A stretch of DNA of 43,857 bases from Clostridia bacterium (GCA_017456965.1 JAFTIJ010000178.1:1-43857), one strand, 5' to 3'; counted from the stretch's first letter, positions 19,634 to 41,291 are shown. The notes: generated by a model not told the origin, from the sequence alone. Made by a program: numbers and translations.

Positions 19634-19742
19634 GCGTTTGCGACAGCCAAAAAACGCAGAACGTCACCCGTGCAGGTGTAAACGGGATCCCGTCCGTGCA
19701 CGCGGCGGATCAAAGAAAAACAGAAAGTAGGATGGTACACTT

Positions 19743-20690
19743 ATGGGAAAGAAAATTACGGTTATCGGCGCAGGCAGCGTTGGCGCTACCATTGCGTACA
19801 CACTTTCCGTCAAAGGCATCGCTGATGAGATCGTCATGATCGACATCAACGAAAACAAGGTGCTCGGTGAGGCACTTGACATTCGACAGGGTCTTCCTTT
19901 CTGCAGAGCAACCTCCGTATATGCGGGCGGTTACGCGGAAGCGGTCAACTCCGACATTGTCGTTATCACCTCCGGTCTGCCGAGAAAGCCCGGCCAGACC
20001 CGTCTTGAGCTCGCACAGGCAAACGTGGATATTCTGAAGAGCATTATGCCCAGAATCACCAAGTACGCTCCCGATGCGATCTATATCCTGGTAGCAAACC
20101 CCGTCGATATCCTTACCTATACCTTCGTAAAGTATTCCGGTATTCCGGAAAATCATATCTTCGGCTCGGGTACGATGCTCGACTCCGTCCGTCTGCGCTC
20201 CAGACTTGCAGAGTACTACGGCATCGACTCCACTTACATCAACGCATACATGCTCGGTGAGCACGGCGACTCCATGTTCTTGCCCTGGTCTCTTGTTAAG
20301 ATCAACGGCAACGGCGTCCGTCTCCACGAGGAGGTCAAGGCAAGAGAGGGCGGTCTTCTCCCCGAGATCGACAAGGATGCGATCGAGAAATACGTCCGCA
20401 CCTCCGGCGGCAGAGTTATCGCGAGAAAGGGCGCAACCTTCTACGCGGTCTCCATGTCCGTGGCTCATATGTGTGAGTGCGTGCTCAACAACGTCGGCTG
20501 CGTTCTCCCCGTATCCGTCATGATGAACGGTGAGCATGGCGTCAGCGACGTATGTCTGAGTTACCCGACGATGATCAACAGCGACGGCGTTTTCGCTAAG
20601 GTCCCCACGCCTCTGACCGAGGAGGAGGAGGCCGCTCTGCGCAGTAGCGGCGACGCGCTCAAGGCCGTTATTTCCGGTCTTGCATTCTAA
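19743..20690 (+). CDS. mdh: LDH-family 2-hydroxyacid dehydrogenase, predicted malate dehydrogenase
   Basis: GAGSVG Rossmann motif. LDH-like NPVDILTY, GSGTMLDS.R.R and GEHGDS motifs. It reads SGLPRKPGQTR (Arg81, codon 19983-19985) where LDHs have Gln. Sits directly upstream of fumC. Confidence 0.65.
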   Translation: MGKKITVIGAGSVGATIAYTLSVKGIADEIVMIDINENKVLGEALDIRQGLPFCRATSVYAGGYAEAVNSDIVVITSGLPRKPGQTRLELAQANVDILKSIMPRITKYAPDAIYILVANPVDILTYTFVKYSGIPENHIFGSGTMLDSVRLRSRLAEYYGIDSTYINAYMLGEHGDSMFLPWSLVKINGNGVRLHEEVKAREGGLLPEIDKDAIEKYVRTSGGRVIARKGATFYAVSMSVAHMCECVLNNVGCVLPVSVMMNGEHGVSDVCLSYPTMINSDGVFAKVPTPLTEEEEAALRSSGDALKAVISGLAF

Positions 20691-23330: not shown

Positions 23331-25322
23331 ATGCAAAAGATTGGTGTTTTCGTGTGCCATTGCGGCACGAATATCGCCGGCACCGTTGATGTAAAGGCGG
23401 TTGCCGAGGCGCTCGGCAAAGAGCCCGGCGTCGTTTTCTCCGCCGAATATCCGTATATGTGTTCCGAGGCAGGTCAGAACCTGATCAAGAACGCGATCAA
23501 GGACTACGGACTGACCGGCATCGTTGTATGCTCCTGCTCGCCCCGTATGCACGAGGCTACGTTCCGCAAGACCGCGGCGGCTGCAGGACTCAACTCCTAC
23601 ATGGTTGAGATTGCAAATATCCGTGAGCAGTGCTCCTGGATCCACAAGGATATCAAGGTCGCTACCGAAAAGGCGATCGTCCTCGGACGCACCGCCATCG
23701 CGAAGGTTGCTCTCAACACTCCTCTTACCGCAAGCTCCAGCCCCGTTGTCAAGCGTGCGCTCGTCATCGGTGGCGGTATCGCAGGTATCCAGACCGCGCT
23801 TGATATCGCAGACGCGGGCTACGAGGTCGATATCGTAGAGAAGGAGCCCACCATCGGCGGCAAGATGGCTCAGATCGACAAGACGTTCCCGACCCTCGAC
23901 TGCGCGGCTTGTATCCTCACGCCGAAGATGGTTGACTGCGCTCAGAACGAAAAGATCCATATTTACTCCTACAGTGAGGTAGAGAGTGTCAAGGGCTTCG
24001 TCGGTAACTTCACCGTCTCCATCAAGAAGAAGGCGCGTTACGTTGACGAAACCAAGTGTACCGGCTGCGGTCTGTGTACCGAAAAGTGCCCGATGAAGAA
24101 GACCCCCAACCTCTTCAACCTCGGACTTGACAACCGCTCCGCGATCTACATTCCCTTTGCTCAGGCGATCCCGAAGGTTGCGACCATCGATGCCGACTAC
24201 TGTAACATGCTGAAAAACGGCAAGTGCGGTGTCTGCTCCAAGGTCTGTGCCGCAGGCGCGATCGACTACAAGCAGAAGGATCAGATCATCGAGGAGAAGT
24301 ACGGTGCCATCGTCGTTGCTACCGGCTTCAATCCCATCAAGCTTGACGGCTACGATGAGTTCGCTTACAACGAGAGCCCCGACGTCGTAACCTCCCTTGA
24401 GCTTGAGAGACTGATGAACGCCGCAGGTCCCAACGGCGGTACGCTCCTGCGTCCCTCCGACAAGACGCATCCCAAGACCATCGTATTCGTACAGTGCGTA
24501 GGCTCCCGTGATACCACCGATTGCGGCAAGCCATACTGCTCCAAGATCTGCTGTATGTATACCGCGAAGCACGCAATGCTCATCCGCGACAAGTATCCGG
24601 ATACCGAGGTATACGTATTCTACATCGACGTCCGTACGCCCGGTAAGAACTTCGACGAGTTCTATCGCCGTGCCGTTGAGGAATACGGCGTGCATTACAT
24701 CAAGGGCATGGTAGGCAAGGTTATGCCTCAGCCCGACGGCAAGCTCCTCGTCCGCGCCGCTGACCTGATCATGAACGAGCAGGTTATGATCAACGCAGAC
24801 ATGGTCGTCCTCGCCGCCGCAATCGAGCCCGACAAGACCGCAAGACCTCTTGCGACCATGCTGACCGCAAGCATGGATACCAACGACTTCTTCACGGAGG
24901 CACATCCCAAGCTCCGTCCCGTTGAGAGCCCCACCGCAGGTATCTTCCTCTCCGGTGTATGCCAGGGTCCGAAGGATATCCCCGAGACCGTTGCACAGGC
25001 AAGTGCCGCAGCAGCGAAGGTTATCGGCCTGCTTGCCAAGGATAAGCTCCTGAGCAACCCCTGCGTTGCACACTCCGATGAGAACCTGTGTAACGGCTGC
25101 TCCTCTTGTGAAAGAGTATGTCCCTACGGCGCGATTTCCTACGTGGATAAGGAATTCCGTATGCCCGACAGAACCACAAAGATTCGCCGCGTAGCGTCCG
25201 TCAATGCCGCCGTTTGCCAGGGCTGCGGTGCTTGTACCGTTGCTTGTCCCTCCGGCGCGATGGACCTCTCCGGCTTCTCCAATAAACAGATCATGGCGGA
25301 GGTAGATGCAATATGTCGATGA
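23331..25322 (+). CDS. hdrA: heterodisulfide reductase subunit A-like FAD/FeS protein
   Basis: VFVCHCGTNIAG N-terminus, VIGGGIAGIQTALDIA dinucleotide fold, internal CTGCGLCTEKCP motif, and C-terminal CNGCSSCERVCP / CQGCGACTVACP ferredoxin domain. 663 aa. Confidence 0.85.
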   Translation: MQKIGVFVCHCGTNIAGTVDVKAVAEALGKEPGVVFSAEYPYMCSEAGQNLIKNAIKDYGLTGIVVCSCSPRMHEATFRKTAAAAGLNSYMVEIANIREQCSWIHKDIKVATEKAIVLGRTAIAKVALNTPLTASSSPVVKRALVIGGGIAGIQTALDIADAGYEVDIVEKEPTIGGKMAQIDKTFPTLDCAACILTPKMVDCAQNEKIHIYSYSEVESVKGFVGNFTVSIKKKARYVDETKCTGCGLCTEKCPMKKTPNLFNLGLDNRSAIYIPFAQAIPKVATIDADYCNMLKNGKCGVCSKVCAAGAIDYKQKDQIIEEKYGAIVVATGFNPIKLDGYDEFAYNESPDVVTSLELERLMNAAGPNGGTLLRPSDKTHPKTIVFVQCVGSRDTTDCGKPYCSKICCMYTAKHAMLIRDKYPDTEVYVFYIDVRTPGKNFDEFYRRAVEEYGVHYIKGMVGKVMPQPDGKLLVRAADLIMNEQVMINADMVVLAAAIEPDKTARPLATMLTASMDTNDFFTEAHPKLRPVESPTAGIFLSGVCQGPKDIPETVAQASAAAAKVIGLLAKDKLLSNPCVAHSDENLCNGCSSCERVCPYGAISYVDKEFRMPDRTTKIRRVASVNAAVCQGCGACTVACPSGAMDLSGFSNKQIMAEVDAICR

Positions 25323-25747
25323 ATGAATTCAAACCCAAAATCGTGGCGTTCTGCTGCAACTGGTGCTCCTATGCGGGCGCCGACCTTGCAGGCACAAACC
25401 GTCTGAACTATCCCGCCGACGTCAAGATCATCCGCGTTCCTTGCTCCTGCCGTGTCAATCCTCTCTTCATCCTTCGTGCATTCCAGAGAGGCGCGGACGG
25501 CGTGATCCTGTGCGGATGCCATCCCGGCGACTGCCACTATACGACGGGTAACTACTATGCGAGACGCCGTATGACCCTGCTTTTCTCCATGCTCGATTAC
25601 CTCGGCATCGAGAAGGAGCGTACCCGTGTAGAATGGGTTTCCGCCGCAGAAGGCGCGAAATTCGCTACTGTAATGAATGACTTTGTTAAGACCGTTACCG
25701 AACTCGGTGAAAACAAGAGACTGGAGGACCTCAGATGCAAGAAATGA
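25313..25747 (+). CDS. mvhD: MvhD/FlxD-like (methyl-viologen-reducing hydrogenase delta subunit family) protein
   Basis: KIVAFCCNWCSYAGADLAG...RVPCSCRV...GADGVILCGCHPGDCHY. Overlaps the hdrA stop by 10 nt. Confidence 0.8.
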   Translation: MSMNEFKPKIVAFCCNWCSYAGADLAGTNRLNYPADVKIIRVPCSCRVNPLFILRAFQRGADGVILCGCHPGDCHYTTGNYYARRRMTLLFSMLDYLGIEKERTRVEWVSAAEGAKFATVMNDFVKTVTELGENKRLEDLRCKK

Positions 25748-26706
25748 TGAAGAAAAGAGCGAAAGAGCTCCTCGCTTCCGGTGAAGTAACCAGAGTCATC
25801 GGTTGGAAAAAGAATGAATTTGACTACGATATCACTCCCGCCGTATTCACGAGTGCGGAGGAGATCGACCGCGATTTCATCTATGACGATTTCTGCGGTG
25901 TCAACCTCTCCAAGTTTACCTTCCAGCATCAGAAGAACGATACCAAGACGCTCGTTTTCCTGAAGCCCTGCGATTCCTACAGCATGACCCAGCTCATTAC
26001 CGAGCACCGTGTTGACAGAAACGCACTGTATATCATCGGCGTACCGTCCTACGGCAAGATCGACGTTGAGAAGATCAAGGCTGACGGTGTGACCGGTATC
26101 CTCTCCATCACCTCCGAGGGCGGCGACGTACACGTTCACACCCTTTACGGTGACAAGACCTACGCAAAGTACGAGGTCACCTCCGAGCGCTGTCTCAACT
26201 GCAAGAGCAAGATGCACCCCACCTACGACGAGCTCATCGGCTTTGAGGGCGAGGTCATGGAGACTGAGCGCTTTGACGAGGTTGCAAAGCTTGAGGCGAT
26301 GACCCCCGAGGAGCGCTTCGAGTTCTGGCGCGGCGAGCTCTCCCGTTGCATCCGTTGCAACGCCTGCCGCAACGCTTGTCCCGCATGTACCTGTGAGACC
26401 TGTATTTTCGATAACAACGATTCCGGCGTTGCGCAGAAGGCGGCCGCTGACTCGTTTGAAGAGAATATGTTCCATATCATCCGCGCATTCCACGTTGCAG
26501 GCCGTTGCACCGACTGCGGCGAATGCTCCAGAGTATGTCCTCAGCACATCCCGCTCCACCTTCTGAACCGTAAGTTTATCAGCGATATCAATAAATTCTA
26601 CGGTGACTATCAGGCAGGTGCCGAGATTGGTCAGAGAGCACCTCTCGTCAACTTCACCAAGGAAGACGTGGAGCCCGATATCGTGGCAAAAGGAGGTAAA
26701 GCATAA
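25735..26706 (+). CDS. iron-sulfur electron-transfer protein (HydB/AsrA/FlxB-C-like)
   Basis: CIRCNACRNACPACTC and CTDCGECSRVCP cluster motifs. Overlaps the mvhD stop. The family name is from memory. Confidence 0.6.
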   Translation: MQEMMKKRAKELLASGEVTRVIGWKKNEFDYDITPAVFTSAEEIDRDFIYDDFCGVNLSKFTFQHQKNDTKTLVFLKPCDSYSMTQLITEHRVDRNALYIIGVPSYGKIDVEKIKADGVTGILSITSEGGDVHVHTLYGDKTYAKYEVTSERCLNCKSKMHPTYDELIGFEGEVMETERFDEVAKLEAMTPEERFEFWRGELSRCIRCNACRNACPACTCETCIFDNNDSGVAQKAAADSFEENMFHIIRAFHVAGRCTDCGECSRVCPQHIPLHLLNRKFISDINKFYGDYQAGAEIGQRAPLVNFTKEDVEPDIVAKGGKA

Positions 26707-27737
26707 TGCTTAAGATCCTTCGTGAAAATCTCGATCAGCTTTTCGCGCTGATCGCTGAGAAAGAGACCCTTTACATCCCCACCGATGCAACCAGCGGTAT
26801 CGCACAGTTCAAGAAGTGGGAAGCAGGCATGAAAATGTCTGAGAAGCTCAAGACCTCCCGCAGTGCAAAGGATTTCTTCTTCCCGCAGACTGAGGATCTC
26901 GTATCCTTCAAGACGAACGGCAGAAAGATTGATATTATCGACCCCCGCACCGAGACCGAGGACTTCGTGATCTTCGGCGTACGTGCGTGCGATGCCAAGA
27001 GCTTCACCATCCTCGATCGCGTATTCCTCGTCGATCCCGTAGATACCTATTACAAGAATCGCCGTGAGCACGGCACCGTCGTTACTCTTGCTTGCTCCAA
27101 GCCCGCTGAGACCTGCTTCTGCACCACCTTCGGCATCGATCCCACTGAGCCCGCAGGCGACGTCAGCGCATGGCTCACCGAGGATGCACTCTATATCAAG
27201 GCCGTAACCGAGAAGGGAACTGCCTTCGTTGAGAGTGTCAAGGCGATCGCAGAGGAGAGCGACGAGACCGCAGTCGAGGCACAGAAGGCTGCAACCAAGC
27301 AGATCCTCGACAAGCTCCCGATCAAGAACCTCAAGACCGAGGCCTTCGGCGGCGGTAAGACCGAGACCTACTTCAAGTCCGAGGAGTGGGCAAAGCTCTC
27401 CGAGGCTTGCCTTGGATGCGGCACCTGCACCTTCGTATGCCCCACCTGTCAGTGCTACGATATCCGCGACTTCGACACGGGACACGGCATCGACCGTTTC
27501 CGTTGCTGGGACAGCTGTATGTACTCCGACTTTACCAAGATGGCACACGGCAACCCCAGACTCTCCCAGAAGGAACGCTTCCGTCAGCGCTTCATGCATA
27601 AGCTCGTTTATTTCCCCGAGAACAATGAGGGTATCTTCGGCTGCGTCGGCTGCGGCAGATGCGTAGAGAAGTGCCCGATCTCGATGAATATCGTCAAAGT
27701 CATGAGAACACTTGCAAAGGAGGAAGAAGGAAAATGA
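26706..27737 (+). CDS. iron-sulfur electron-transfer protein (sulfhydrogenase beta / AsrA / FlxB-C-like)
   Basis: CLGCGTCTFVCPTCQC and CVGCGRCVEKCP motifs. TAATG overlap with the upstream gene. Confidence 0.6.
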   Translation: MLKILRENLDQLFALIAEKETLYIPTDATSGIAQFKKWEAGMKMSEKLKTSRSAKDFFFPQTEDLVSFKTNGRKIDIIDPRTETEDFVIFGVRACDAKSFTILDRVFLVDPVDTYYKNRREHGTVVTLACSKPAETCFCTTFGIDPTEPAGDVSAWLTEDALYIKAVTEKGTAFVESVKAIAEESDETAVEAQKAATKQILDKLPIKNLKTEAFGGGKTETYFKSEEWAKLSEACLGCGTCTFVCPTCQCYDIRDFDTGHGIDRFRCWDSCMYSDFTKMAHGNPRLSQKERFRQRFMHKLVYFPENNEGIFGCVGCGRCVEKCPISMNIVKVMRTLAKEEEGK

Positions 27738-28567
27738 ACAACGAAACCCTTATTCCCGTAGTTGGCGTCATCACCGAAGTAAAGCTTGATACCCCTGATA
27801 TCAAAAACTTCCGTGTCGTCGGCAGAGACGGTAAGAAGCCCTTCGCTCACAAGCCCGGTCAGTGCGCAATGGTTTCTCTGCCCGGTATCGGTGAAGCAAT
27901 GTTTTCCATCACCTCTTCTCCCACAAACGAAGAGTACATGGAATTTGAAATCAAGAAGTGCGGTTGTCTGACCACTTGGTTCCATATGCTTGAGCCCGGT
28001 CAGGAGATCACCGTACGCGGACCTTACGGAAATGCATTCCCCGTAGACGACGCTTTCGTCGGCAAGGATCTTCTGATCATCGCCGGCGGTGTCGGTCTCG
28101 CCCCCGTCCGCTCCGTCATCAACTATTGCCGTCACTACAGAGACCGTTACGGCAAGATCGATATCGTTTACGGCTCCCGCTCCAAGGAGGACCTTGCCTT
28201 CTATCAGGAGATCGTTGACGAGTGGATGAGCCCCGATGAGAAGGACGTCAACGTCCACCTCACCATCGACCGCGAGCAGGATAACTGGGACGGTCACGTC
28301 GGCTTTGTTCCCAACTACGTCAAGGAGCTGAATTTCTCCACCGACAAGACCGTTATCATGTGCGGACCTCCGATCATGATCAAGTTCACGCTTGCAGGTC
28401 TGAAGGAGTGCGGCTTTGACGAGACGCAGATCTTCACGACGATGGAGCTCAAGATGAAGTGCGGTATCGGCAAATGCGGCAGATGCAACATCGGCTCCAA
28501 GTACGTTTGCAAGGACGGCCCCGTATTCCGTATGGATGAGCTTTCCGAGCTTCCGGATGAATATTAA
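27734..28567 (+). CDS. FAD/NAD(P)H-binding oxidoreductase with C-terminal 2Fe-2S (HydG/AsrB/PyrK/FlxA-like)
   Basis: Ferredoxin-reductase-type layout (GQCAMVSLPG, LLIIAGGVGLAPV) ending in CGIGKCGRCNIG..YVCKDGP. ATGA overlap with the upstream gene. Confidence 0.7.
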   Translation: MNNETLIPVVGVITEVKLDTPDIKNFRVVGRDGKKPFAHKPGQCAMVSLPGIGEAMFSITSSPTNEEYMEFEIKKCGCLTTWFHMLEPGQEITVRGPYGNAFPVDDAFVGKDLLIIAGGVGLAPVRSVINYCRHYRDRYGKIDIVYGSRSKEDLAFYQEIVDEWMSPDEKDVNVHLTIDREQDNWDGHVGFVPNYVKELNFSTDKTVIMCGPPIMIKFTLAGLKECGFDETQIFTTMELKMKCGIGKCGRCNIGSKYVCKDGPVFRMDELSELPDEY

Positions 28568-28590
28568 TCTTGAAACGGAGGTCATTTGAC

Positions 28591-29265
28591 ATGGAAAATA
28601 TGGTGAATGTCTATCTTTTTGGTAAGAAGTATGAGGTCCCGTCCAATCTTACGATCATGGGCGCGATGGAATACGCAGGCTATCAGCTCGTCCGCGGTTG
28701 CGGATGCCGTAACGGCTTCTGCGGCGCTTGCGCTACGATCTACAGAATCAAAGGTCAGAATGAGCTGAAGTCCTGCCTCGCTTGCCAGACCAAGGTAGAG
28801 GACAATATGTACGTCGCAACCCTTCCTTTCTTCCCGCTGGAAAAGAAGGTTTACGATATTGAAAAGATCAAACCCACGGAACAGATCATGATGCAGCTTT
28901 ACCCCGAGATCTACAGCTGCATCGGATGCAATGCCTGCACCAAGGCGTGCACGCAGGAGCTCAACGTTATGCAGTACATCGCTTACGCTCAGAGAGGCGA
29001 GTACGAGAAGTGCGCAGAGGAATCCTTCGACTGCGTTATGTGCGGCGTTTGCTCCTCCCGTTGCCCCGCAGGTATCTCTCATCCCCAGGTCGCTCTCCTT
29101 GCAAGACGCCTGAACGGCAAGTATCTTGCACCGAAGTCGGCACATCTCGAAAATCGCGTACAGGAGATCAAGGACGGTACCTTCCGGGAGCTCCTTGAGG
29201 CGCTGATGCAGAAGCCGATTTCCGAAATGAAAGAGCTCTACAATAACAGAGAGATCGAGAAGTAA
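28591..29265 (+). CDS. frdB: succinate dehydrogenase/fumarate reductase iron-sulfur subunit-like protein
   Basis: CRNGFCGAC...CLAC (2Fe-2S-like), then CIGCNACTKAC and CVMCGVCSSRCP. Start is set at ATG 28591 after ACGGAGG. Confidence 0.7.
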   Translation: MENMVNVYLFGKKYEVPSNLTIMGAMEYAGYQLVRGCGCRNGFCGACATIYRIKGQNELKSCLACQTKVEDNMYVATLPFFPLEKKVYDIEKIKPTEQIMMQLYPEIYSCIGCNACTKACTQELNVMQYIAYAQRGEYEKCAEESFDCVMCGVCSSRCPAGISHPQVALLARRLNGKYLAPKSAHLENRVQEIKDGTFRELLEALMQKPISEMKELYNNREIEK

Positions 29266-29278
29266 GGAGGAACGACTG

Positions 29279-30892
29279 ATGTATAATGAGAAAATGCTGG
29301 AGTCCATGCGTAAGGTTGCCGCAAACCGCGAAGCCAATGCAGAGCTTGAGCCCCGCAGAATGACCGCGGACGAAAAGGACGCGCTCCTCGCTGAATTCCA
29401 TCCCGACTACAAGCAGAACGAGTTTGCAATTCTCTCCATTGGTGAAAACAAGGGCGAGAAGGTTCCCACCGAGCTTTGCGAGCTCCTTCAGGCGCATAGC
29501 CGTATTTCTGCCGCAGACGTTGACCTTACCAAGGTTGACTATGAGACCGATGTTCTGATCATCGGCGGCGGCGGTGCAGGCGCATCTGCCGCGATCGAGG
29601 CGGATGAGGCAGGCGCAAAGGCAATGATCGTCACCAAGCTCCGCATCGGTGACGCAAATACCATGATGGCTGAGGGTGGCATCCAGGCTGCCGACAAGCC
29701 CAACGATTCCCCCGCGATCCACTATCTCGACGCTTTCGGCGGCGGACACTTCGCCGCAAAGCCCGAGCTGCTTTATAAGCTCGTAAATGAAGCACCCGAG
29801 GCGATCCAGTGGCTCAACAATCTCGGTGTCGAATTCGATAAGACCGAGGACGGCACGATGGTCACGACCCACGGTGGCGGTACCTCCCGCAAGAGAATGC
29901 ACGCCGCAAAGGACTACTCCGGTGCGGAGATCATGAGAACGCTTCGCGATGAGGTTCTCAATCGCGGTATTCCCGTGATCGACTTTACCGCCGCAGTTGA
30001 GCTCATCCTCGATGAGAACGGCAACTGCGCAGGCGCAGTCCTCATGAATATGGAGACCAAGGAGCTCCTCGTTGCCAAGGCTAAGACCGTTATCCTTGCT
30101 ACGGGTGGCGCGGGCCGTCTCCACTATCAGGGCTTCCCGACCTCCAACCACTACGGTGCAACCGCGGACGGTCTCGTTCTCGGTTACCGTGTCGGCGCGA
30201 AGCTCCTCTACGCAGATACCCTCCAGTATCACCCCACGGGTGCGGCATATCCCGAGCAGATCTTCGGTGCGCTCGTTACCGAGAAGGTACGTTCCATCGG
30301 TGCGAAGCTCGTCAACGCGGACGGTGAGGTCTTCATGCATCCGCTGGAGACCCGTGACGTTTCCGCCGCCTCCATCATCCGTGAGTGCAACGCAAGAGGC
30401 AAGGGCATCGAGACCTCCGACGGTGTCGGTGTATGGCTCGATACGCCTATGATCGAGCTCAAGAACGGCGAGGGCACGATCGAGAAGAGAATCCCCGCGA
30501 TGCTCCGTATGTTCGGTAAGTACGGCATCGACATCCGCAAGGAGCCGATCCTCGTATATCCCACGCTCCACTATCAGAACGGCGGTCTCGATATCAACGC
30601 AGACTGCATGACCAAGGTAGAGAATCTCTACGCCGCAGGCGAGGTCGTCGGCGGTATCCACGGTCGCAACCGTCTGATGGGCAACTCTCTGCTTGATATC
30701 ATCGTATTCGGCAGAGACGCAGGTCGCGCAGCAGCAGAGAAGGCAAAGGATGTTACCGTCGGTGCACTCACCCTCGATCACATGGCAGCGTTCGACGCAG
30801 AGAGAGCGGCTGCAGGTCTTGAGACTGAAGCGATCTCTCCCAAGCTTCTCCCCACCTATACCCACGGCAACCCCAAGTTTGAAGCGAAATAA
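29279..30892 (+). CDS. frdA: fumarate reductase/succinate dehydrogenase flavoprotein-like subunit (soluble type)
   Basis: DVLIIGGGGAGASAA FAD fold, LQYHPTG, GRNRLMGNSLLDIIVFGR. It reads GDANTMMAEGG where covalent-FAD enzymes carry the SHT motif. 537 aa. Confidence 0.75.
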   Translation: MYNEKMLESMRKVAANREANAELEPRRMTADEKDALLAEFHPDYKQNEFAILSIGENKGEKVPTELCELLQAHSRISAADVDLTKVDYETDVLIIGGGGAGASAAIEADEAGAKAMIVTKLRIGDANTMMAEGGIQAADKPNDSPAIHYLDAFGGGHFAAKPELLYKLVNEAPEAIQWLNNLGVEFDKTEDGTMVTTHGGGTSRKRMHAAKDYSGAEIMRTLRDEVLNRGIPVIDFTAAVELILDENGNCAGAVLMNMETKELLVAKAKTVILATGGAGRLHYQGFPTSNHYGATADGLVLGYRVGAKLLYADTLQYHPTGAAYPEQIFGALVTEKVRSIGAKLVNADGEVFMHPLETRDVSAASIIRECNARGKGIETSDGVGVWLDTPMIELKNGEGTIEKRIPAMLRMFGKYGIDIRKEPILVYPTLHYQNGGLDINADCMTKVENLYAAGEVVGGIHGRNRLMGNSLLDIIVFGRDAGRAAAEKAKDVTVGALTLDHMAAFDAERAAAGLETEAISPKLLPTYTHGNPKFEAK

Positions 30893-33612: not shown

Positions 33613-33668
33613 AAAAAGAGCAAGAACAAAAGGATTTTTTCCTTTTGGACTTGCTCTTTTCTTTTTTG
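33613..33668 (+). terminator. rho-independent terminator after rex
   Basis: Long stem aaaagagcaag...cttgctctttt with an inner caaaagg/ccttttg helix, followed by cttttttg. Confidence 0.85.
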
Positions 33669-33775
33669 CGTGGTATCCTGTATCATGAAATCAATGGATG
33701 AAATTTTAAAATCCTGTATAATTTCCTTTCCTTTTATCGTCTTTTATAATAGAAGTATTCTATGAAAGGAAGAAA

Positions 33776-36385
33776 ATGATGATGAAGAAAAAACAAGTAA
33801 TCGTGACGATGCTGATCGTCGCAGTTGCCATCGCGGCGGTATTATGCATCCGTCCCGTGTATGCCATCTTTTTTGGCGGTGGCTATGGGGTGACACAGGC
33901 GAATTTACATACCGCATCAACCCACACGAGCTTTACCGTAACGGAGGAGGGGATCGCACGCGTGTATACCGATTTTCTCGGCTATGACAGCGCGGTCGGC
34001 ACAGAGCTTCAGATCACGCTTTTACGTGATGGCGAGGAGGTCGTGTCCGACGTGCACGTTGTACGGGAGAGATCGCATACCGAGGTCTATGAGTATCCCC
34101 TCTACGAGGTAGGCGAGTATCAGTGTACCGTCGTCTATACTGTGAGCGGCGCGGACGGCACGAGCGACGTGATCCGATTCGAGGGCTCAGCGACGTGCAC
34201 TGTGCCTGCCAAGGCAGTTGTAACAAATCCGTTTCCGCCGACGGAGGAAACGCTATACAACGGGAGCGGCAAGCTCGTTGAGAAGCTCGTGACAGAGTAT
34301 GATGACAAGGGTAACCGTATTCTCGATACCGTGACGGACGGGCAGGGGCGTCTGATCGCAACGCTCTCCTATCACGCCGTGAGCCGTGAGCGTGACGGCT
34401 ATTATACACTCGGAACGTGGCAGGATATCCGCGAGGGTGTGATCCCGCTTGCGGTAGCTTCCTTTACCGTATGGGATACCAACGGCGCGAAGCTCGTCAC
34501 GGGCTCACAGGTGTATGACGAGCAGGGCGGTATTGCGCTGACCATTCAGCGCACGGACGGCACCAAGGAGACGCGCCGATTTGATGAGAATGGGCGCATC
34601 CTTTCCGTGACGGCGTATAACGCGGCGCAGGAGATTACGGAGACGCGACGCTACGAGTATACGGACGGTGGCCATATCTGCTACGTGGAGTCGGATGCGA
34701 CGCCCGATACCGTGACATGGGAGCACTATGACGCGCACGGCGTTTTGCTGACGGAGGACCGATACCGTCGGGACGGCATCCTTGCCGAGCGGACGCATTA
34801 CGACGCAAGCGGTGGTATCACGGGTGTGGAATATTACGATCAGGGCGGTGAGATCACGCGAGAGATCCTCTATCCCGTCCCGACAGACGGCGAGCGCCGT
34901 ACGGAGCGCACCTATGCCGACGAGTGGATCACCGACCGCGATACGGAGGAGCGTATGATCGTGGGAGAACGGGAGTACGACGCAGACGGCGTGCTGATCC
35001 GTATGAGCTCCTATCACGGTGGGGTGCTTTTTGAAGAGACCTTCTCCCATGGCAATCAGCTTACGGAGACCTACTTGCGTAAGGGGACGGAGGGCGTGCG
35101 GACCTTTTACGGTCTCGACGGCTCCGTTACCCGTGTAACGCGCTACCAATATGCCGAGGACGGCAGAGCGCTCGGGGAATATACCTATCGCGGTACGACC
35201 CTTCTCTCCGCTGTTCTGTATGAGGACGACGGCACCTCGATTACGTTGACCTATCGCCCCGACGGCGCGGCAGAAACCGCGGTATATACGGATCAGAACG
35301 GACAGATCACAGAGAAAAGATACTACGCCGCTGACGGTAGCTATACGTCCTCTGCCTTCCGATACGATAGCAAGGGACGCATCAGCGAAGAGACGCGCAA
35401 GAGCATGGATAATTTCAGCGATCTGCTCGACAGTCCCGGTGTACCGACGACCGTGATTCAGAATCCTGCGTCCAAGGGATATCGCTTTGGTAAGATCGAG
35501 ACACCTGTCATGACGGTCATGACAGGCAAATACAGCTATAACGGTGATCGGCTGACGAAGATCACGTATTACGATGACGGGGACGGCACGCTTGCCTTGC
35601 GCGTGGACTATCGCTACGGTCAGCACGGCGTTTCCGAGATCCTGTGGTACACGGAGGGCACGACCCTGATCGAAAAGCAGACCTTCCGCTATCGTGCGGA
35701 CGGCACGCTGATGAGTATGACAGATTTTGACTACGAGATCACGACAAGTGCGCCTAAGACGGTCACGGAGTATGCATCCGACGGCGTTACCGTGTCCGCA
35801 CGAACGACGTACGGCAGAGACGGCAAGGTCGCGACCGAGGACTACTACCGTGCAGACGGACAGCCCGACAGAGTTCTTTTTTATCAAAACGGCGCACATA
35901 TCAAAACCGAGCAGTATACCTATGATGAGAACGGCGTGCCGCTTGGCAGTCAAACGACCGCCGCAAACGGCACGAGACTTGCAGAGCGCGTTTATAAGGA
36001 CGGCAGGCTCTCGTATGAGAAGGAGTGGGTCAAGCAGACGGTCGTAAGCTATGCGTCGGCGGGCGCAAAGCCGACCACCAAGGAGCAGACTGTGATCCGT
36101 CTTATAACTTATACCTACGACAAGGAGGGCTATCTTTCCGAGGTTCGAGAGGAGAGAGGCGGCGCGTTGTACACGGTTGCATCCTATCAGCATACCTCGC
36201 GCGGCGTATTGAATCAAGTGATCCTCAAGATAAACGAGGCGCAGATGACGTGTGCGTACGACGCCTGCGGTATGGCGACGCAGGATAAGATGACTGTTTA
36301 CAATTATATTCTCTACGGCGTCAGCTACGCACAGCTACAGGGGCTTGGCGAGGTATCGACCTATATCTGCCGATACGATTTCTGA
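33776..36385 (+). CDS. membrane-anchored YD-repeat-like protein with shared N-terminal domain
   Basis: N-terminal hydrophobic anchor. A roughly 100-aa domain similar to those in 4125..5521. Then well over ten degenerate Y.YD..G.L-type units (RYEYTDGG, EREYDADGVL, FRYDSKGRI, YTYDENGVP and others). No C-terminal toxin-like domain recognised. Confidence 0.75.
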   Translation: MMMKKKQVIVTMLIVAVAIAAVLCIRPVYAIFFGGGYGVTQANLHTASTHTSFTVTEEGIARVYTDFLGYDSAVGTELQITLLRDGEEVVSDVHVVRERSHTEVYEYPLYEVGEYQCTVVYTVSGADGTSDVIRFEGSATCTVPAKAVVTNPFPPTEETLYNGSGKLVEKLVTEYDDKGNRILDTVTDGQGRLIATLSYHAVSRERDGYYTLGTWQDIREGVIPLAVASFTVWDTNGAKLVTGSQVYDEQGGIALTIQRTDGTKETRRFDENGRILSVTAYNAAQEITETRRYEYTDGGHICYVESDATPDTVTWEHYDAHGVLLTEDRYRRDGILAERTHYDASGGITGVEYYDQGGEITREILYPVPTDGERRTERTYADEWITDRDTEERMIVGEREYDADGVLIRMSSYHGGVLFEETFSHGNQLTETYLRKGTEGVRTFYGLDGSVTRVTRYQYAEDGRALGEYTYRGTTLLSAVLYEDDGTSITLTYRPDGAAETAVYTDQNGQITEKRYYAADGSYTSSAFRYDSKGRISEETRKSMDNFSDLLDSPGVPTTVIQNPASKGYRFGKIETPVMTVMTGKYSYNGDRLTKITYYDDGDGTLALRVDYRYGQHGVSEILWYTEGTTLIEKQTFRYRADGTLMSMTDFDYEITTSAPKTVTEYASDGVTVSARTTYGRDGKVATEDYYRADGQPDRVLFYQNGAHIKTEQYTYDENGVPLGSQTTAANGTRLAERVYKDGRLSYEKEWVKQTVVSYASAGAKPTTKEQTVIRLITYTYDKEGYLSEVREERGGALYTVASYQHTSRGVLNQVILKINEAQMTCAYDACGMATQDKMTVYNYILYGVSYAQLQGLGEVSTYICRYDF

Positions 36386-36418
36386 GACATCGACACAGCA
36401 AAGGAGTAATAGACCAAA

Positions 36419-36970
36419 ATGATGAGTCTGTTTCTGTCCATGCTCGATAACGAGACAGACAGGATAAATTTTGAAAGGATATATAAAAAATATTCTGACG
36501 GCATATTCCGCCGCGTTCTCTCCATGACGCGCAATGTACAGGATGCGGAGGATATTGTGCAGGAGTGCTGGATCAAGGCCGCAAAAAACATGGCGCTTTT
36601 TCGGGGAAGGGACGAGAGTATGATCCGCTCTTATATCATGCGTATCGCCTATCACGAGACGGTCTCCTTTGCGCGCACCAAAAAGCGAGAGGCGGCGCTT
36701 GTGACCGAGCTTGAGGATGCAGAGCCGCTTGCGGACGATGGGGAGCTTTTCACCGTGTGCGAGCGGGAGGGCGTGGAGACGATCCGTGCGTGCATCCGCG
36801 AGCTCGGCGACGTTTACAGCGAGACGCTGATCTATCATTATCTCTATCACTATACGCCGAAGGAGATCGCGACGATGCTGGATATGAAGGAGATCACCGT
36901 AAGAAAAAGAATATCCCGCGGACGGGAAAGGTTAGTGAAATTATTGGAGAGGAGGGGGATCCATGACTGA
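36419..36970 (+). CDS. RNA polymerase sigma factor, ECF/sigma-70 family, paralog of 2801..3361
   Basis: DAEDIVQECW...YIMRIAYHETVSFAR (region 2) and YHYTPKEIATMLDMKEITVRKRISRGRERL (region 4). Same N-terminal (F/Y)LSM(L/I) start as the first sigma. Confidence 0.85.
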   Translation: MMSLFLSMLDNETDRINFERIYKKYSDGIFRRVLSMTRNVQDAEDIVQECWIKAAKNMALFRGRDESMIRSYIMRIAYHETVSFARTKKREAALVTELEDAEPLADDGELFTVCEREGVETIRACIRELGDVYSETLIYHYLYHYTPKEIATMLDMKEITVRKRISRGRERLVKLLERRGIHD

Positions 36971-37637
36971 TGACAAGAGTGGCAGACAACGCTTGGAGGA
37001 GGCGCTGTTATTGTACGATCGGGCGTATTACGACTCGTTTCCCGTAGCGACGGAAAAGTATACGCACACGCGTGGCTTTGGGAAACGAATGCGCGAGGCA
37101 CTGTTTCAAGCGCCATCGCAGACGGAGAATGCGAGATCGCTTGGCAAGCGCACGGTGTTTATGCTGCTTGCCGCCGCGCTGATGGTGGCGGGGGCGATGG
37201 GAGTGACGGCGATCGGAGAGCGCCACGGCGGCTTCTATCTGCATTCGGGGGGCAATTTTATGGAGCTTGTCTCGGGTGGCGAGTATGCCGCGGGGGCACC
37301 TATGCGCATTGAGACGGTATACTGTCCGACCGTGCCGTCGGCGTTTCGCGTGACGAGGGAGCATGTTACCTCATACGAGGTGAAATATATCTGGGAGGAT
37401 GAGACGGGTGCGCGGATCATTTTCACCCAGCTTCTGCTCGGTGCGAAATCCACGATGGATAATGAAAACGCGGATCTCCATATCCGCTACGTCGGTCACC
37501 TGCGCCTCGCTTGCTCCGACAAAAACGGACTGAAGAGCTTCTATTGGAATGACTCGGGGTATTCCTTCTCGCTCGTGGTTCCAAGTGCAATGCCCGATGC
37601 CGTATGCGTGGAGCTCATACGCTCCGCTTGTGAATAG
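36963..37637 (+). CDS. single-pass putative anti-sigma factor with DUF4367-like domain, paralog of 3358..4122
   Basis: 8-nt overlap with the sigma gene. One TM segment (TVFMLLAAALMVAGAMGVTAI). The C-terminal domain ends GYSFSLVVPSAMPDAVCVELIRSA, like GYAFELSGPTTVSREDYVRMIESL in the paralog. Confidence 0.55.
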   Translation: MTDDKSGRQRLEEALLLYDRAYYDSFPVATEKYTHTRGFGKRMREALFQAPSQTENARSLGKRTVFMLLAAALMVAGAMGVTAIGERHGGFYLHSGGNFMELVSGGEYAAGAPMRIETVYCPTVPSAFRVTREHVTSYEVKYIWEDETGARIIFTQLLLGAKSTMDNENADLHIRYVGHLRLACSDKNGLKSFYWNDSGYSFSLVVPSAMPDAVCVELIRSACE

Positions 37638-37656
37638 AGATCGAAAGGGGACCCGT

Positions 37657-40119
37657 ATGAAGAAATGGATTGTTTTTTCGGCGGCGCTGACGGCCGTATT
37701 GCTGAGTGTCTGCGTATGCATCACACCCGTCCGTGCACTGTTTTTTGAGATCACGGAGCCCGAGCAGGTCAATCTCCATACCGCCAAGACGCATACCGCT
37801 TTTTTGATCACGGAGGAGGGGCTCGCCCGTGTTTGCGTGGATTATCTCGGCTATGAGAGCGCGGCGGGCGGAAGCGTGCGGGTCACGATCCGCTCCGAGC
37901 GAGATTCGGTGGTCGACCGGACCTACGATATCGAGGGAAATCTGCATTTTGAGGTATATGAGTATCCTTTGTATGAGACGGGGCGCTACCATTGCACCGT
38001 CGTGTATACGATACGGGGAAATACGGCGGGTACCGACGTTATTACCTTTGAGGGTGATGCCGAGTGCCTGATCCCTGCGGTAGTGCCTGAGGTCCATCTG
38101 CCGACAGAGCAGGTTTTGCTTGATCAGAACGGAAAGCTTTGTGAAAAGCTTCTGATCGAGCACGGAAAAAACGGTGAGCGTCTCCGTGACGCCGTGTACG
38201 ATGCGGGCGGCAATAAGATCGCAGAGTTTTTGTATCATACAAAAACGCCGTACAACGCCTCCTTGGACGCATACTATGCTCTCGGTACGTTACATGAGAT
38301 CAAGCAGCACGAGATCCCGCCGGCGACGGCATCCTTTACCGTTTGGGATTCGGGCGGGAGAAAGGTGATGTCGGGATATGGCGTATACCTTGAGGACAAT
38401 CGGGTGCATCTCACCGTGAATGACGGCAATGACGGCTTTCTGCTATCCGAGAGCCGTGAGTACGATGCCGATGGGCGAGTGACCCTTGTCATCGGATACG
38501 ACGCCGAGGGGAACACGATCAGAACGAGCTCCTATGAGTACGGTACAGAGAGCTACGTCTGCATATACAAAGACGGGGAAACGACCGTTTATGAGACCTA
38601 CGGTAATGACGGCGCTCTGCAAAAAAAGGAGACCGTCAATGCGGACGGACTGCTTGCAAGTGAGACCGTATATCAATACGACGAGGCAACCGAGACCTTG
38701 CGACCGTCATCCGTTACCGATTTTTTCTACACGCCCGACGGTGAGCGTGAACACGTGCTTACGTATGACGGGGAGCACAGACTGCTCGGACGGACGGATT
38801 ACGAGGGTGGGCTCGTGCTCACGGAAACGTCGTATCTAAGAAACGGAGAGGTCTCCCAAAAGACGCTTTACGAGTACGATACGGAGAAAAAACTGAGCAA
38901 AAAAACGTGTTACCGTGACGGTAGCTTGTTTGCCGTGTGGTATCCGCTAAAGAATAGCGAGCTTCTCTACGTGGAGCACGGAGAGCACGGCATCGTGGAG
39001 CTTGCACAGTATCGGAGTCGGGACAATATTCTGACGGAGCAGATCCGATTTGATCATGAGAGCTCCCGCTATGAGTACTCGACGTTCCGCTATGACGAGC
39101 GAGGGCGTATGATCGAGGAGAATATTGAGGTGCTGTACGGCTTTGGCGGGCATTTCCATGAGGATATTTCTGCGCTGTACGCCTATGACGTTTCCTATGT
39201 CCCCTATATTTCCGTCGGACAGGATCTGTCGCAAACGCATGAGAGCACACGCCGCTATCGGTACGATACGGACGACCGCCTCACGGAGATGTCGATCTAT
39301 GAGCAGGGGGCACTCTGTTACGTGGAGGGCTACGCCTACAGAGAGGACGGAACGGTGCTGAAAAAGACAGTCTCTCAATATCAAAGCGAGAGATTGCGCT
39401 CTGAGGTCGTGACAGACTTTGCCGCCGACGGCAGGACACCGACAAGACAGACAACGTACAACAGGGGCAGAAGCATCTTGTCGAGAACCTATTATCGCGC
39501 AGACGGTATCCCCGAGATCACGACGTCGTATGAGGGTGAGATCCCGACGCAGGAGAAACGGTATGAGTACACCGAGGACGGGGTTTTTCTTTCCGCGACG
39601 CTTACGGATGCATACGGTATGTTTCTTTCACGCACGCAATATGCGTATGATGAATACGGACGACTGTCTCTTGCAGAGCATATCAATTGGCAGGGCGTGA
39701 CGGTCAACGGCGTTTCGTTTACGTATGACGACGCGGGGCGACGCCTCTCCAAGACCACCCGCGTGTTACAGACGGTCACCGAGCTCAGCGGAGACGGTAC
39801 ACCGATCACGGGGCAAAAGAATATGACATATCGCGAAATTTACGCTTATGACGAAAAGGGTCAGCTTACGGATCTGACGGAGAGCATCAATGCAAACGTC
39901 GTCCGTCATACCTGCTATCAGTATTACGCGACGGGCACGCTTGCACGCACCGTCGTGACGACTGCCAAGGGTAAGCTGAGCACAGACTACGACCGCTACG
40001 GAATTGTCGTAAAGGAAACCATGACCGTTGACAGTCTCAGGGATCCGGATTATTTTTATGAGAGCATACCGCGGTACAACGACTTTCGTTGTGATTACCG
40101 CGACCGGTGCAGTGAATAA
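37657..40119 (+). CDS. membrane-anchored YD-repeat-like protein, paralog of 33776..36385
   Basis: The ORF is trimmed to ATG 37657 after GAAAGGGGA. Same anchor motif (ITPVRALFF versus IRPVYAIFF). Same N-terminal domain and YD-like units (SREYDADGRV, FRYDERGRM, YRYDTDDRL, FTYDDAGRR). Confidence 0.75.
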   Translation: MKKWIVFSAALTAVLLSVCVCITPVRALFFEITEPEQVNLHTAKTHTAFLITEEGLARVCVDYLGYESAAGGSVRVTIRSERDSVVDRTYDIEGNLHFEVYEYPLYETGRYHCTVVYTIRGNTAGTDVITFEGDAECLIPAVVPEVHLPTEQVLLDQNGKLCEKLLIEHGKNGERLRDAVYDAGGNKIAEFLYHTKTPYNASLDAYYALGTLHEIKQHEIPPATASFTVWDSGGRKVMSGYGVYLEDNRVHLTVNDGNDGFLLSESREYDADGRVTLVIGYDAEGNTIRTSSYEYGTESYVCIYKDGETTVYETYGNDGALQKKETVNADGLLASETVYQYDEATETLRPSSVTDFFYTPDGEREHVLTYDGEHRLLGRTDYEGGLVLTETSYLRNGEVSQKTLYEYDTEKKLSKKTCYRDGSLFAVWYPLKNSELLYVEHGEHGIVELAQYRSRDNILTEQIRFDHESSRYEYSTFRYDERGRMIEENIEVLYGFGGHFHEDISALYAYDVSYVPYISVGQDLSQTHESTRRYRYDTDDRLTEMSIYEQGALCYVEGYAYREDGTVLKKTVSQYQSERLRSEVVTDFAADGRTPTRQTTYNRGRSILSRTYYRADGIPEITTSYEGEIPTQEKRYEYTEDGVFLSATLTDAYGMFLSRTQYAYDEYGRLSLAEHINWQGVTVNGVSFTYDDAGRRLSKTTRVLQTVTELSGDGTPITGQKNMTYREIYAYDEKGQLTDLTESINANVVRHTCYQYYATGTLARTVVTTAKGKLSTDYDRYGIVVKETMTVDSLRDPDYFYESIPRYNDFRCDYRDRCSE

Positions 40120-40125
40120 AGATAA

Positions 40126-40160
40126 ATCCGAACCTCACCGTCGTGTGATAAGGTTCGGAT
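40126..40160 (+). terminator. hairpin after the second YD-repeat gene (terminator candidate)
   Basis: 10-bp stem atccgaacct/aggttcggat with a 15-nt loop and no U-tract. Confidence 0.35.
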
Positions 40161-40269
40161 CATTGCTGTCGCCACCCGATATTTGGGTGCCGACACTGTC
40201 GGCCGGTCTGAGAATATCAGATTTCCGTCTGCATGAGCGATGGAGCGGCCTTCTGAAATACAATAGAAA

Positions 40270-40875
40270 ATGAGAGTAAGCTTTATGACAAAACAGAAAA
40301 TTCATCGGGTGCTTATGCCACTTGCCGCCATTGCTCTGATTCTGATCGGTACGGCTTTACTTCTATACGCCTTGTCTGTAAACAATTGGAGCATCATATG
40401 TCTGCCGTTGTTGCTTTTCGCAATGGGACTGATGCTGTTGATCGTTGTGATCAACAAAGCAAATGATGCTCCCACCGATGGAATAAACAAAGAAATGAGC
40501 GCAAGGATCAAGCTGCTGCTGATTCTCGTGGGTGTGGTATTCAGCACGGGCTCCTTCCTGTATGAATATACGATCCCGTATGAGGATCCCGTTATCGGGA
40601 CAGTCATCCTGTCCGTGGATATCGTACTGCTTCTTTTGAATCTCTTTTATCTGTCCGTTGTTCTGACGGGAAACGTAAGCCGATCCATCATCAATTCCGT
40701 TTTATCCTCACTGCTGTACCTTACGGGGCTCTCGGGGGTGCTGATGGCCTTGGCGGAAGGAAATGCGAGCCTACGTCTGCTTTTGGGTATATTACAGGTC
40801 TTGATCTATGCCGCGCCCTCGATCATTCTGCTGTTACCCGTCATTTATTTTATAGCGTTGATCTTCGGGGGATAA
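40270..40875 (+). CDS. polytopic membrane protein of unknown function
   Basis: Several hydrophobic helices and no recognisable family. The start is uncertain (ATG 40270 or 40285). The local DNA is visibly more AT-rich than its surroundings. Confidence 0.5.
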   Translation: MRVSFMTKQKIHRVLMPLAAIALILIGTALLLYALSVNNWSIICLPLLLFAMGLMLLIVVINKANDAPTDGINKEMSARIKLLLILVGVVFSTGSFLYEYTIPYEDPVIGTVILSVDIVLLLLNLFYLSVVLTGNVSRSIINSVLSSLLYLTGLSGVLMALAEGNASLRLLLGILQVLIYAAPSIILLLPVIYFIALIFGG

Positions 40876-40895
40876 AACAAAGGGGGAAATTTCAT

Positions 40896-41291
40896 ATGTT
40901 TTTTATAGGAATTTTTCTTTGTGTTGTGATTGCCGTTATCGTCGGCATTGCGATACCGAAAAGGGGGGACTACAGTAAGTCGGATCGGATAGGCGTTGTA
41001 TTTAACGTGATCCTTTCGGTTCTCTACGTGCCCATATCGTTGTTCAGTGTGTTTTCGCTTTATGCCGCGGATAGTATGTTGATGTATTCCGAGCCTGCTC
41101 GGAAGATCGTTGAGCTTATGATTACGGTCGGCTTGTCGATGCCTTTTGTATCTATATTATGTATCGCGCTTTCCGTTTTCTTTCGTAAAAAACAAAAGCG
41201 AGCGTTAAGCTTTACGGTTCAGTTTATCCCTTGCATTCTTTTTATTATCATGATCGTGGCCTTTGAATGGGTAAGCGTTATGCAAGCATAA
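40896..41291 (+). CDS. small polytopic membrane protein of unknown function
   Basis: AAAGGGGGA RBS. Four hydrophobic segments in 131 aa. No family recognised. Confidence 0.55.
   Translation: MFFIGIFLCVVIAVIVGIAIPKRGDYSKSDRIGVVFNVILSVLYVPISLFSVFSLYAADSMLMYSEPARKIVELMITVGLSMPFVSILCIALSVFFRKKQKRALSFTVQFIPCILFIIMIVAFEWVSVMQA

Follow-up and report, generated by a model that had tools for sequence, protein, structure and literature searches.

Extracytoplasmic function (ECF) sigma factors that are paired with anti-sigma factors and co-transcribed with envelope genes are already well known, as are proteins built from YD repeats. In the sigmaE-RseA-RseB system, for instance, the ECF pair comes with a conserved accessory component, RseB, which acts on RseA. 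YD repeats, in turn, form the body of B. subtilis WapA, a shell protein of polymorphic toxin systems. Here we describe a locus in which an ECF pair and YD-repeat proteins are found together: a four-gene operon at positions 33776-40119 of a 43,857-nt stretch of DNA from a Clostridia bacterium (GCA_017456965.1 JAFTIJ010000178.1:1-43857, referred to as a whole as the window), which encodes the paralogous YD-repeat proteins YD1 and YD2, an ECF sigma factor (sigma-1) and its putative anti-sigma factor (anti-sigma-1). With modest confidence, we favour the reading that this is a self-regulated ECF operon which exports or displays toxin-less YD binding proteins. The order and coupling of the genes, their domain content, the lack of toxin hallmarks, the recurrence of the gene cassette and a conserved promoter-like element are established; the action of the anti-sigma factor, the dependence of the promoter on sigma-1, and the export, localisation and binding role of the YD proteins are predicted from sequence, modelled structure and comparison between loci.

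The four genes are co-directional on the plus strand, in the order YD1, sigma-1, anti-sigma-1 and YD2, and the GC content of the operon is the same as that of the rest of the window. In YD1 (33776-36385, 869 aa), aa 4-30 form a signal or anchor segment, which is followed by an N-terminal beta-sandwich domain (the N-domain) at ~aa 40-145, a hairpin array at ~aa 150-845 and a short tail containing DKMTV and C-x-Y. YD2 (37657-40119, 820 aa), the product of the conserved '+2' gene, is laid out in the same manner, with a signal or anchor at aa 2-27, the N-domain at aa 44-137 and hairpins from aa 150 to aa 813; its tail contains ETMTV and C-x-Y. These coordinates and lengths, first given in a prediction made from the DNA alone, agree with the list of open reading frames (ORFs), and so do the predicted gaps of 33 nt between the YD1 stop and the sigma gene and of 19 nt between the end of the anti-sigma gene and YD2. 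The paralogy of YD1 and YD2 was likewise confirmed, as they align over their full length at 31% identity (E 4e-105). Between them, sigma-1 (36419-36970, plus strand, 183 aa) and anti-sigma-1 (36963-37637, plus strand, 224 aa) overlap by 8 nt (ATGACTGA). The start codon of YD2 (ATG, 37657) has a ribosome-binding site, GAAAGGGG, 6 nt upstream, and its position is the same in all homologs. A 15-bp hairpin that follows immediately on the YD2 stop (40125-40161) is the likely end of the operon; its function as a terminator on the plus strand is uncertain because the T-run lies on the minus-strand side.

Sigma-1 is made up of regions 2 and 4 alone, with matches to Sigma70_r2 (1.5e-11) and Sigma70_r4_2 (3.8e-12), and its TIGR02937 score of 69.4 bits exceeds the cut-off (42.9); it belongs to the ECF (group 4) sigma factors. 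The product of the gene coupled to it probably functions as an anti-sigma factor. It has a cytoplasmic N-terminal part of ~60 aa, one hydrophobic segment at aa 63-86 that would cross the membrane, and an extracytoplasmic part resembling DUF4367 (PF14285). The DUF4367 match of anti-sigma-1 is 18.8 bits, below the gathering score of 22.1; 7 of 8 aligned anti-sigma homologs match this family (best 1e-10), and the single transmembrane segment is common to the homologs. A PDB sequence search with the anti-sigma profile gave chance-level matches only. The same arrangement of sigma and anti-sigma genes is present in at least 12 loci.

Close relatives of the YD proteins are few. A HMMER search against 1.84 billion cluster representatives returned 389 matches at E <= 1e-3, only 4 of them at E <= 1e-30, and two of these 4 are the window proteins themselves. 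Only three other full-length relatives, P0003, P0004 and P0005, were found by a word-index search, at 51%, 45% and 31% identity, and P0006 was found by the exhaustive search; word-index searches with YD1, which gave back the query alone, and with the N-terminal 155 aa, which gave no match, were uninformative owing to the index; a full-length YD alignment searched against 185,579 GTDB species genomes found none. The relatives come from two metagenome-assembled genomes (MAGs), GCA_054292545.1 and GCA_052843085.1, and from an ENA metagenome. Their gene layouts (loci are numbered L001 to L020) can be compared with that of the window. In L001, from the ENA metagenome, Rex is followed by sigma, anti-sigma, a single YD gene and DAHP synthase, and the YD gene overlaps the anti-sigma stop by 4 nt. 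The order in L002, in GCA_054292545.1, is Rex, a YD gene for 869 aa, sigma, anti-sigma, a second YD gene for 788 aa, FeoB and DAHP synthase, and its 869-aa protein is the ortholog of YD1, which has no counterpart in L001. L003 is a short contig with two tandem YD genes. The sigmas of L001 and L002 are 69-74% identical to sigma-1. The YD layout in L001, L002 and L003 thus identifies the downstream, YD2-type gene as the constant partner of the sigma/anti-sigma pair, and the upstream paralog as an optional duplicate. The original prediction had described two YD proteins bracketing a sigma pair; this is true of the window, but the core includes the downstream paralog alone.

When the search is widened to the N-domain, the same pair is found next to proteins of quite different kinds. 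The order sigma, DUF4367 anti-sigma, N-domain protein is present in 12-13 of ~15 evaluable loci of gut Clostridia (the window, twice; L001, L002, L004, L005, L006, L008, L010, L015, L016, L017 and L018/L019), and L007 has it too, cut at the contig edge. Among these loci, L004-L008 are from Lachnospiraceae, Clostridia and Eubacteriales gut MAGs, and L016, a version with LRR_5 repeats, is in the same MAG as L002. Exceptions are L009, with an HTH_3 protein upstream, and L020, where the N-domain protein is found without a sigma/anti-sigma pair. A scan with the alignment of stand-alone proteins (A5) recovered loci of the stand-alone type only. The C-terminal part of the third protein varies between none, YD, LRR_5 and Cys-rich. 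By these gene orders, the cassette consists of sigma, anti-sigma and N-domain protein, with YD repeats as an optional add-on. This shifts the focus of the earlier account, which was centred on the YD repeats: the conserved partner of the sigma pair is the N-domain, and the same cassette occurs without a YD array.

The N-domain is ~100 aa long and belongs to no Pfam family. In the exhaustive search, matches restricted to it (profile positions ~35-143) range from 130-aa stand-alone proteins to proteins of 500-900 aa, in which the remainder is made up of BspA-type LRR_5 (a leucine-rich repeat, LRR), DUF5050, YD-like sequence or regions without assignment. An alignment of 22 sequences (A7) was used to build both a hidden Markov model (HMM) and an AlphaFold2 (AF2) model, and the latter is a seven-stranded beta-sandwich with a predicted local distance difference test (pLDDT) of 93.4 and a predicted template modelling score (pTM) of 0.81. 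Its structural neighbours in PDB and in BFVD, a collection of predicted viral protein structures, are generic Ig-/FN3-like folds only (best E 1.3e-3). One cysteine, in the motif G-x-Y-x-C-x-V-x-Y, is invariant in 22/22 aligned homologs (C117 in YD1, C113 in YD2), and the YD subfamily has further conserved cysteines, one past the N-domain and one in C-x-Y at the extreme C-terminus. A disulfide or another role is possible for these residues. Intramolecular ester or isopeptide cross-links were considered for the N-domain and dropped, as it has no invariant Gln or Lys partner.

An element resembling an ECF promoter, TGTATAATTT-N13-CGTC, lies at 33715-33741 on the plus strand (to 33742 with the final T of CGTCT), 34 nt upstream of the YD1 start codon. 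It can also be written TGTATA-N17-CGTC, with TGTATA as the -35-like and CGTC as the -10-like box, 17 nt apart, which fits the general ECF style of the sigma-X, sigma-W and sigma-M promoters of B. subtilis. In five YD-type loci, the element stands before the first operon gene: in the window and L002 before the 869-aa YD gene, in L001 and L015 before the sigma gene, and in L003 before a distant YD homolog. Its place before the sigma gene in L001 follows from that locus having no upstream YD paralog. Except for TGTATAATTT-N13-CGTC, the intergenic regions upstream of the first gene cannot be aligned between loci. The element is unique in the 44-kb window, even at 3 mismatches, and over all sequence analysed the background of its degenerate pattern is 0.012 per 260 nt. 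It also tracks the similarity of the sigmas, being present where these are 58-74% identical to sigma-1, replaced by a variant for a 40%-identical paralog in the window, and absent from other cassettes whose sigma is <= 48% identical to sigma-1. Dedicated sigma control, as originally proposed, is supported by these observations, and the element at 33715-33741 is probably dependent on sigma-1. A generic sigma-70 promoter scan performed at chance level, with 6 sites against 6.8 expected. In L003, the element (156-182) is accompanied by a sigma-A-type promoter, TTGACG-N17-TATACT, at 203-231, ~20 nt downstream, which suggests that this locus has dual promoters.

The degenerate array of YD units described for both proteins is real, but it is very degenerate, with the strict form Y.YD..G occurring only twice per protein. 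The looser Y-x3-G occurs 31 times in YD1 and 20 times in YD2, against 6.1 +/- 2.2 and 5.2 +/- 2.1 in 1,000 shuffles of the sequences. Tyr and Gly recur with periods of ~12 and ~24 residues, corresponding to a strand plus turn and to one hairpin, respectively. TIGR01643 (YD_repeat_2x) matches YD2 at 33.9 bits (cut-off 15.8) and does not match YD1; Pfam RHS_repeat (PF05593) reaches 15.3 bits in YD2, below its cut-off of 22. MORN_2 (PF07661) is the best Pfam match of YD1 (16.5 bits, E 0.009), below the gathering score of 29.6, and does not match YD2. Among five family members at E <= 0.1, RHS_repeat is found in 4/5 (best 2.8e-4), MORN_2 in 2/5 (best 1.1e-8) and TIGR01643 in 2/5; MORN_2 is also the precomputed annotation of the homolog P0004. 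The nearest sequence relatives of the repeat region (n=50) carry RHS_repeat in 43/50 cases and MORN_2 in 17/50. The original prediction had named assignment to a MORN/YwqK-type family as the outcome that would speak against YD repeats, and this has come about in half: MORN_2 scores as well, alongside YD/RHS, with both mostly below cut-off. PDB sequence searches with YD1 and with the family profile gave chance-level matches only.

The AF2 model of YD2, built on an alignment of only 5 sequences (pLDDT 75.8, pTM 0.50), consists of a transmembrane helix, a seven-strand domain and then ~50 beta-strands. Its top matches in Foldseek are Rhs cores of the type VI secretion system (T6SS), teneurins, Tse5, RhsP and YenBC, with E values from 4e-23 to 1e-11. 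TM-scores of this pTM 0.50 model to the Rhs/teneurin shells are only 0.09-0.25, so that the fold is alike locally, not globally; single-layer OspA sheets are also matched. We conclude that the arrays of YD1 and YD2 are YD/Rhs-type beta-hairpins, degenerate and bordering on MORN_2, which may or may not close into a shell.

Each of the hallmarks by which a YD-repeat toxin can be recognized was looked for. PxxxxDPxGL and DPxGL are absent from YD1 and YD2 in a regular-expression scan, and neither the RHS-core model (TIGR03696) nor the toxin models of Pfam and NCBIfam match either protein at E <= 1. Past the last hairpin there are ~25-50 residues without a family match, which leaves no variable C-terminal toxin; these tails contain the predicted (D/E)(K/T)MTV motif (DKMTV in YD1, ETMTV in YD2), align across five homologs with MTV and C-x-Y in common, and are not polymorphic. 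Nor is there an immunity partner, YD1 being followed by the sigma gene and YD2 by the hairpin and two polytopic membrane ORFs (40270-40875, 201 aa with ~6 hydrophobic segments, and 40896-41291, 131 aa with 4 hydrophobic segments), neither of which belongs to a Pfam family. Because core motif, toxin domain and immunity partner were all not found, the original view that these proteins are not toxins holds. The two membrane ORFs were considered as immunity proteins and rejected, since they are absent from the same position in L001 and L002. The region 40270-41291 is a lower-GC stretch (0.49-0.50) where L002 has FeoB instead; it resembles a site of variable insertions that separates the cassette from DAHP synthase.

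YD1 and YD2 each have a single hydrophobic segment at the N terminus. Their description as membrane-anchored is tentative, as a conserved P-V-x-A|(L/I)-F behind the segment fits a signal-peptidase I site, and many N-domain homologs carry AXA sites or a lipobox Cys. Judged by these motifs, the signal may be either a retained anchor or cleaved at PVxA|(L/I)F. Anchoring to the wall was looked for in YD1 and YD2, and neither LPxTG (scanned as [LIV]Px[TSA]G) nor SLH or cell-wall-binding Pfam domains were found. Both proteins may be located at the surface, with a structural or sensory role, as first proposed.

The window also contains a second cassette, which is preceded by an ECF-like variant of the element, TGTGAAC-N15-CGTG (2719-2744, plus strand), without TATAAT. 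It lies upstream of sigma-2 (2801-3361, plus strand, 186 aa), the paralog of sigma-1 mentioned above (40% identity, E 7e-46). Anti-sigma-2 (3358-4122, plus strand, 254 aa) overlaps the sigma-2 stop by 4 nt, has one transmembrane segment, matches DUF4367 at 25.6 bits (cut-off 22.1) and is 27% identical to anti-sigma-1 (E 8e-19). It is followed on the same strand by two N-domain proteins, A (4125-4841, 238 aa; A7 HMM E 4e-23) and B (4838-5521, 227 aa; A7 HMM E 7e-21), whose genes overlap by 4 nt at the stop of A; both have a lipoprotein-like signal and a Cys-rich C-terminal region, and A has no Pfam match. Past B come an ORF for a Cys-rich, lipoprotein-like protein (~5542-6054), two permeases of the MacB/FtsX type (6006-7487, 7554-9392) and, at 9389-10054, an ABC ATPase, and this MacB/FtsX-type ABC transporter may belong to the operon of the second cassette. 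In L006, a stand-alone-type cassette is immediately followed (1831-7068) by three tandem gene pairs, each encoding a secreted trypsin-like peptidase (Trypsin_2, 338-365 aa) and a lipoprotein (~175-190 aa), which could be further members of that sigma's regulon. Serine-recombinase/resolvase-like ORFs lie within 1-2 kb of stand-alone-type cassettes in L004 (1970-3460) and L010 (1227-1841), so that some cassettes may be carried by mobile elements. In L004, moreover, a DUF6514 ORF separates the sigma and anti-sigma genes.

The genes flanking the YD operon are housekeeping genes, with Rex and GTP-PEPCK upstream and DAHP synthase and prephenate dehydrogenase downstream. Upstream of the operon, a hairpin with a T-run (33627-33647) probably terminates Rex. 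Farther upstream, a cluster of FAD- and Fe-S-oxidoreductases (23331-30892) resembles an Hdr/Flx-type electron-transfer module; in L001 and L002 it occurs in the same order relative to Rex and PEPCK, and FlpD was called in the syntenic L001. At ~18000-20000, the GC content of the window dips to 0.47, against a background of ~0.55.

Taken as a self-regulated ECF operon, the locus would be a four-gene operon built on the recurrent three-gene cassette of gut Clostridia. The third protein here carries a degenerate YD/MORN_2-type hairpin array of ~650-700 aa and has been duplicated, with YD1 as the extra copy between promoter and sigma gene. At rest, the anti-sigma factor would keep sigma-1 at the membrane. 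A cue from the envelope or the extracellular space, sensed by the DUF4367 ectodomain, would free sigma-1, which would then transcribe its own operon from TGTATA-N17-CGTC at 33715-33741. YD1 and YD2 would be exported by Sec, so that outside the cell the beta-sandwich would form a stalk and the YD repeats an extended beta-sheet, and the displayed proteins would be ligand-binding or adhesive, with no toxic payload. A binding role of the YD arrays is suggested because BspA-type LRRs fill the same slot in sister cassettes.

Several observations weigh against this reading. Most matches of repeat models to the YD family are under the curated cut-offs, and with a pTM of 0.50 from a 5-sequence alignment the global shape of the YD2 model is unreliable. 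In the cytoplasmic part of the anti-sigma factor, Pfam scans found no recognised anti-sigma domain (e.g., zf-HC2). The element contains a perfect TATAAT, so that a sigma-A promoter is possible, and in L001 there is a TTCACA 17 nt upstream of TATAAT. Finally, stand-alone third proteins of 135 aa keep the cassette position without any binding array, which is easier to reconcile with a regulatory partner than with a protein that is output only. In the main rival reading, the third protein would be part of a split sensor, its N-domain docking on the DUF4367 ectodomain while the variable C-terminal module serves as a ligand-binding antenna or modulator of anti-sigma proteolysis or release, much as RseB works on RseA, YxlD with YxlC/SigY, or FecA with FecR/FecI; we regard this as possible, though rather unlikely. 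The N-domain is the conserved part, encoded directly behind the anti-sigma gene across cassettes, and the two genes often overlap or abut (by 4 nt in L001 and L006; a 19-nt gap in the window). The module behind it varies, stand-alone N-domain proteins hold the position, and '+2' genes that are needed for ECF regulation have a precedent in ECF31 SigY/YxlC/YxlD (PMC7826278). However, such adjacency is equally expected of a dedicated target gene, L009 and L020 have N-domain proteins without the pair, and a stoichiometric partner would not usually be encoded ahead of the sigma gene, as YD1 is. A broader version, in which YD, BspA LRR and Cys-rich modules would be interchangeable antennas of a Gram-positive split surface-signalling device and families of cassettes would tune each ECF sigma to a different ligand, is speculative and seems unlikely.

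Other alternatives concern the promoter and the nature of the repeats. If TATAAT were the -10 box of a housekeeping sigma-A promoter, the ECF pair would have other targets and the YD proteins would be mere neighbours. The distant cassettes L004, L006, L008 and L010 do show sigma-A-like promoters before their sigma genes, but in 5/5 loci CGTC is kept at a fixed distance of 17 nt past TGTATA amid intergenic sequence that is otherwise unalignable, the sigma-2 element has no TATAAT, presence of the motif follows sigma identity, and a good -35 box to go with TATAAT is missing from the window, L002 and L003; we consider this explanation improbable. The Foldseek matches to T6SS Rhs cores, Tse5, RhsP, YenBC and teneurins, and the RHS_repeat annotation of most of the nearest sequence relatives, could also be read as signs of a cryptic Rhs-type polymorphic toxin, whose YD shell might consist of YD1 and YD2 together, like TcB/TcC, and whose cargo would be the tails or an unrecognised domain. 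Against this stand the absence of DPxGL, of an RHS-core match and of an immunity gene, the conserved tails, downstream ORFs that are not conserved, the low TM-scores to closed shells, and the ~650-700 aa of repeats, far below the matched Rhs cores (>= 1,000 aa). L001 moreover has one YD gene only, and no features of T6SS, the type VII secretion system (T7SS), LXG or PT-TG were found. Instead of YD proteins, they might be MORN_2/YwqK-type repeat proteins that act as binders in the manner of immunity proteins or antitoxins, as the best Pfam match of YD1, the E of 1.1e-8 in one homolog and the annotation of P0004 would allow; the ~24-residue period is also close to that of MORN_2. MORN_2 nevertheless stays under its gathering score in both window proteins, TIGR01643 passes in YD2, and RHS_repeat is found in twice as many of the five family members. 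The YwqK family is small and cytoplasmic, while the YD proteins have export signals, are at least 800 aa long, and have no LXG or other toxin gene nearby. Because of the repeat-model scores and the missing toxin hallmarks, both are disfavoured: a MORN_2/YwqK identity is very unlikely and a hidden Rhs toxin extremely so.

A search of the accessible literature found no description of DUF4367 with a sigma factor, or of YD repeats with an ECF/anti-sigma pair, in this arrangement; DUF4367 itself came up there in a single paper, on a different subject. Three things appear to be undescribed: the recurrent cassette of ECF sigma, DUF4367 anti-sigma and beta-sandwich protein with interchangeable C-terminal modules, its presence in several copies in gut Clostridia, and the YD form that lacks a toxin and has a second paralog close to the promoter. 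That YD/Rhs-type proteins of a Gram-positive gut anaerobe can be something other than toxin shells calls for care with the automatic annotation of an 'RHS/YD repeat' as a toxin. The cassette can also be used as a handle on the regulation of surface or adhesion proteins in uncultured gut Clostridia. With TGTATA-N17-CGTC as candidate cognate promoter, the regulon becomes directly testable, and sigma-1 and this element could serve as an orthogonal sigma/promoter pair. A split-signalling device, if true, would be comparable in function to FecA/FecR/FecI or RsgI/sigmaI while being made from different parts.

Compared with known systems, the proteins are closest in structure to the Rhs/YD shells (8QJD, 7PQ5, Tse5, RhsP and YenBC 4IGL), which share the long arrays of YD-type hairpins and head the list of structures matched by the YD2 model. 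Unlike these shells, YD1 and YD2 have no RHS core or aspartyl-protease motif, C-terminal toxin, immunity gene or secretion-system adaptor; their array is at most about two-thirds of a T6SS Rhs core, the signal is of the Sec type, and the genes are in an ECF sigma operon. Teneurins and bacterial teneurin-like proteins (6FB3, 9IFO) use a YD sheet as an extracellular scaffold or adhesion module and show strong local structural similarity, but their plug, NHL propeller and vestigial toxin have nothing comparable in YD1 and YD2. MORN_2/YwqK-like proteins have similar hairpin repeats, whereas YD1 and YD2 are predicted to be exported, are far larger, lack a toxin partner and match the family below cut-off.

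On the regulatory side, SigY-YxlC-YxlD (ECF31; PMC7826278) also combines a sigma factor, a membrane anti-sigma factor and a conserved third gene, and FecI-FecR-FecA (PMC9249621) a sigma/anti-sigma pair with a conserved accessory component. The sigmaI-RsgI systems of cellulolytic clostridia (PMC7826278, its ref. 57) have several paralogous cassettes per genome with differing extracellular modules. As in such ECF systems with an accessory gene, an autoregulatory ECF-type promoter is likely here too. In contrast to them, the variable module is on a separate '+2' protein and not on the anti-sigma factor, the ectodomain of the latter is DUF4367, and the domain of the third protein belongs to no described family. 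BspA-type LRR surface proteins (PF13306) have their counterpart in the LRR_5 arrays behind the same N-domain in sister cassettes, although the window proteins have no LRR, and by this analogy the YD array seems to fill the slot of a surface-binding module.

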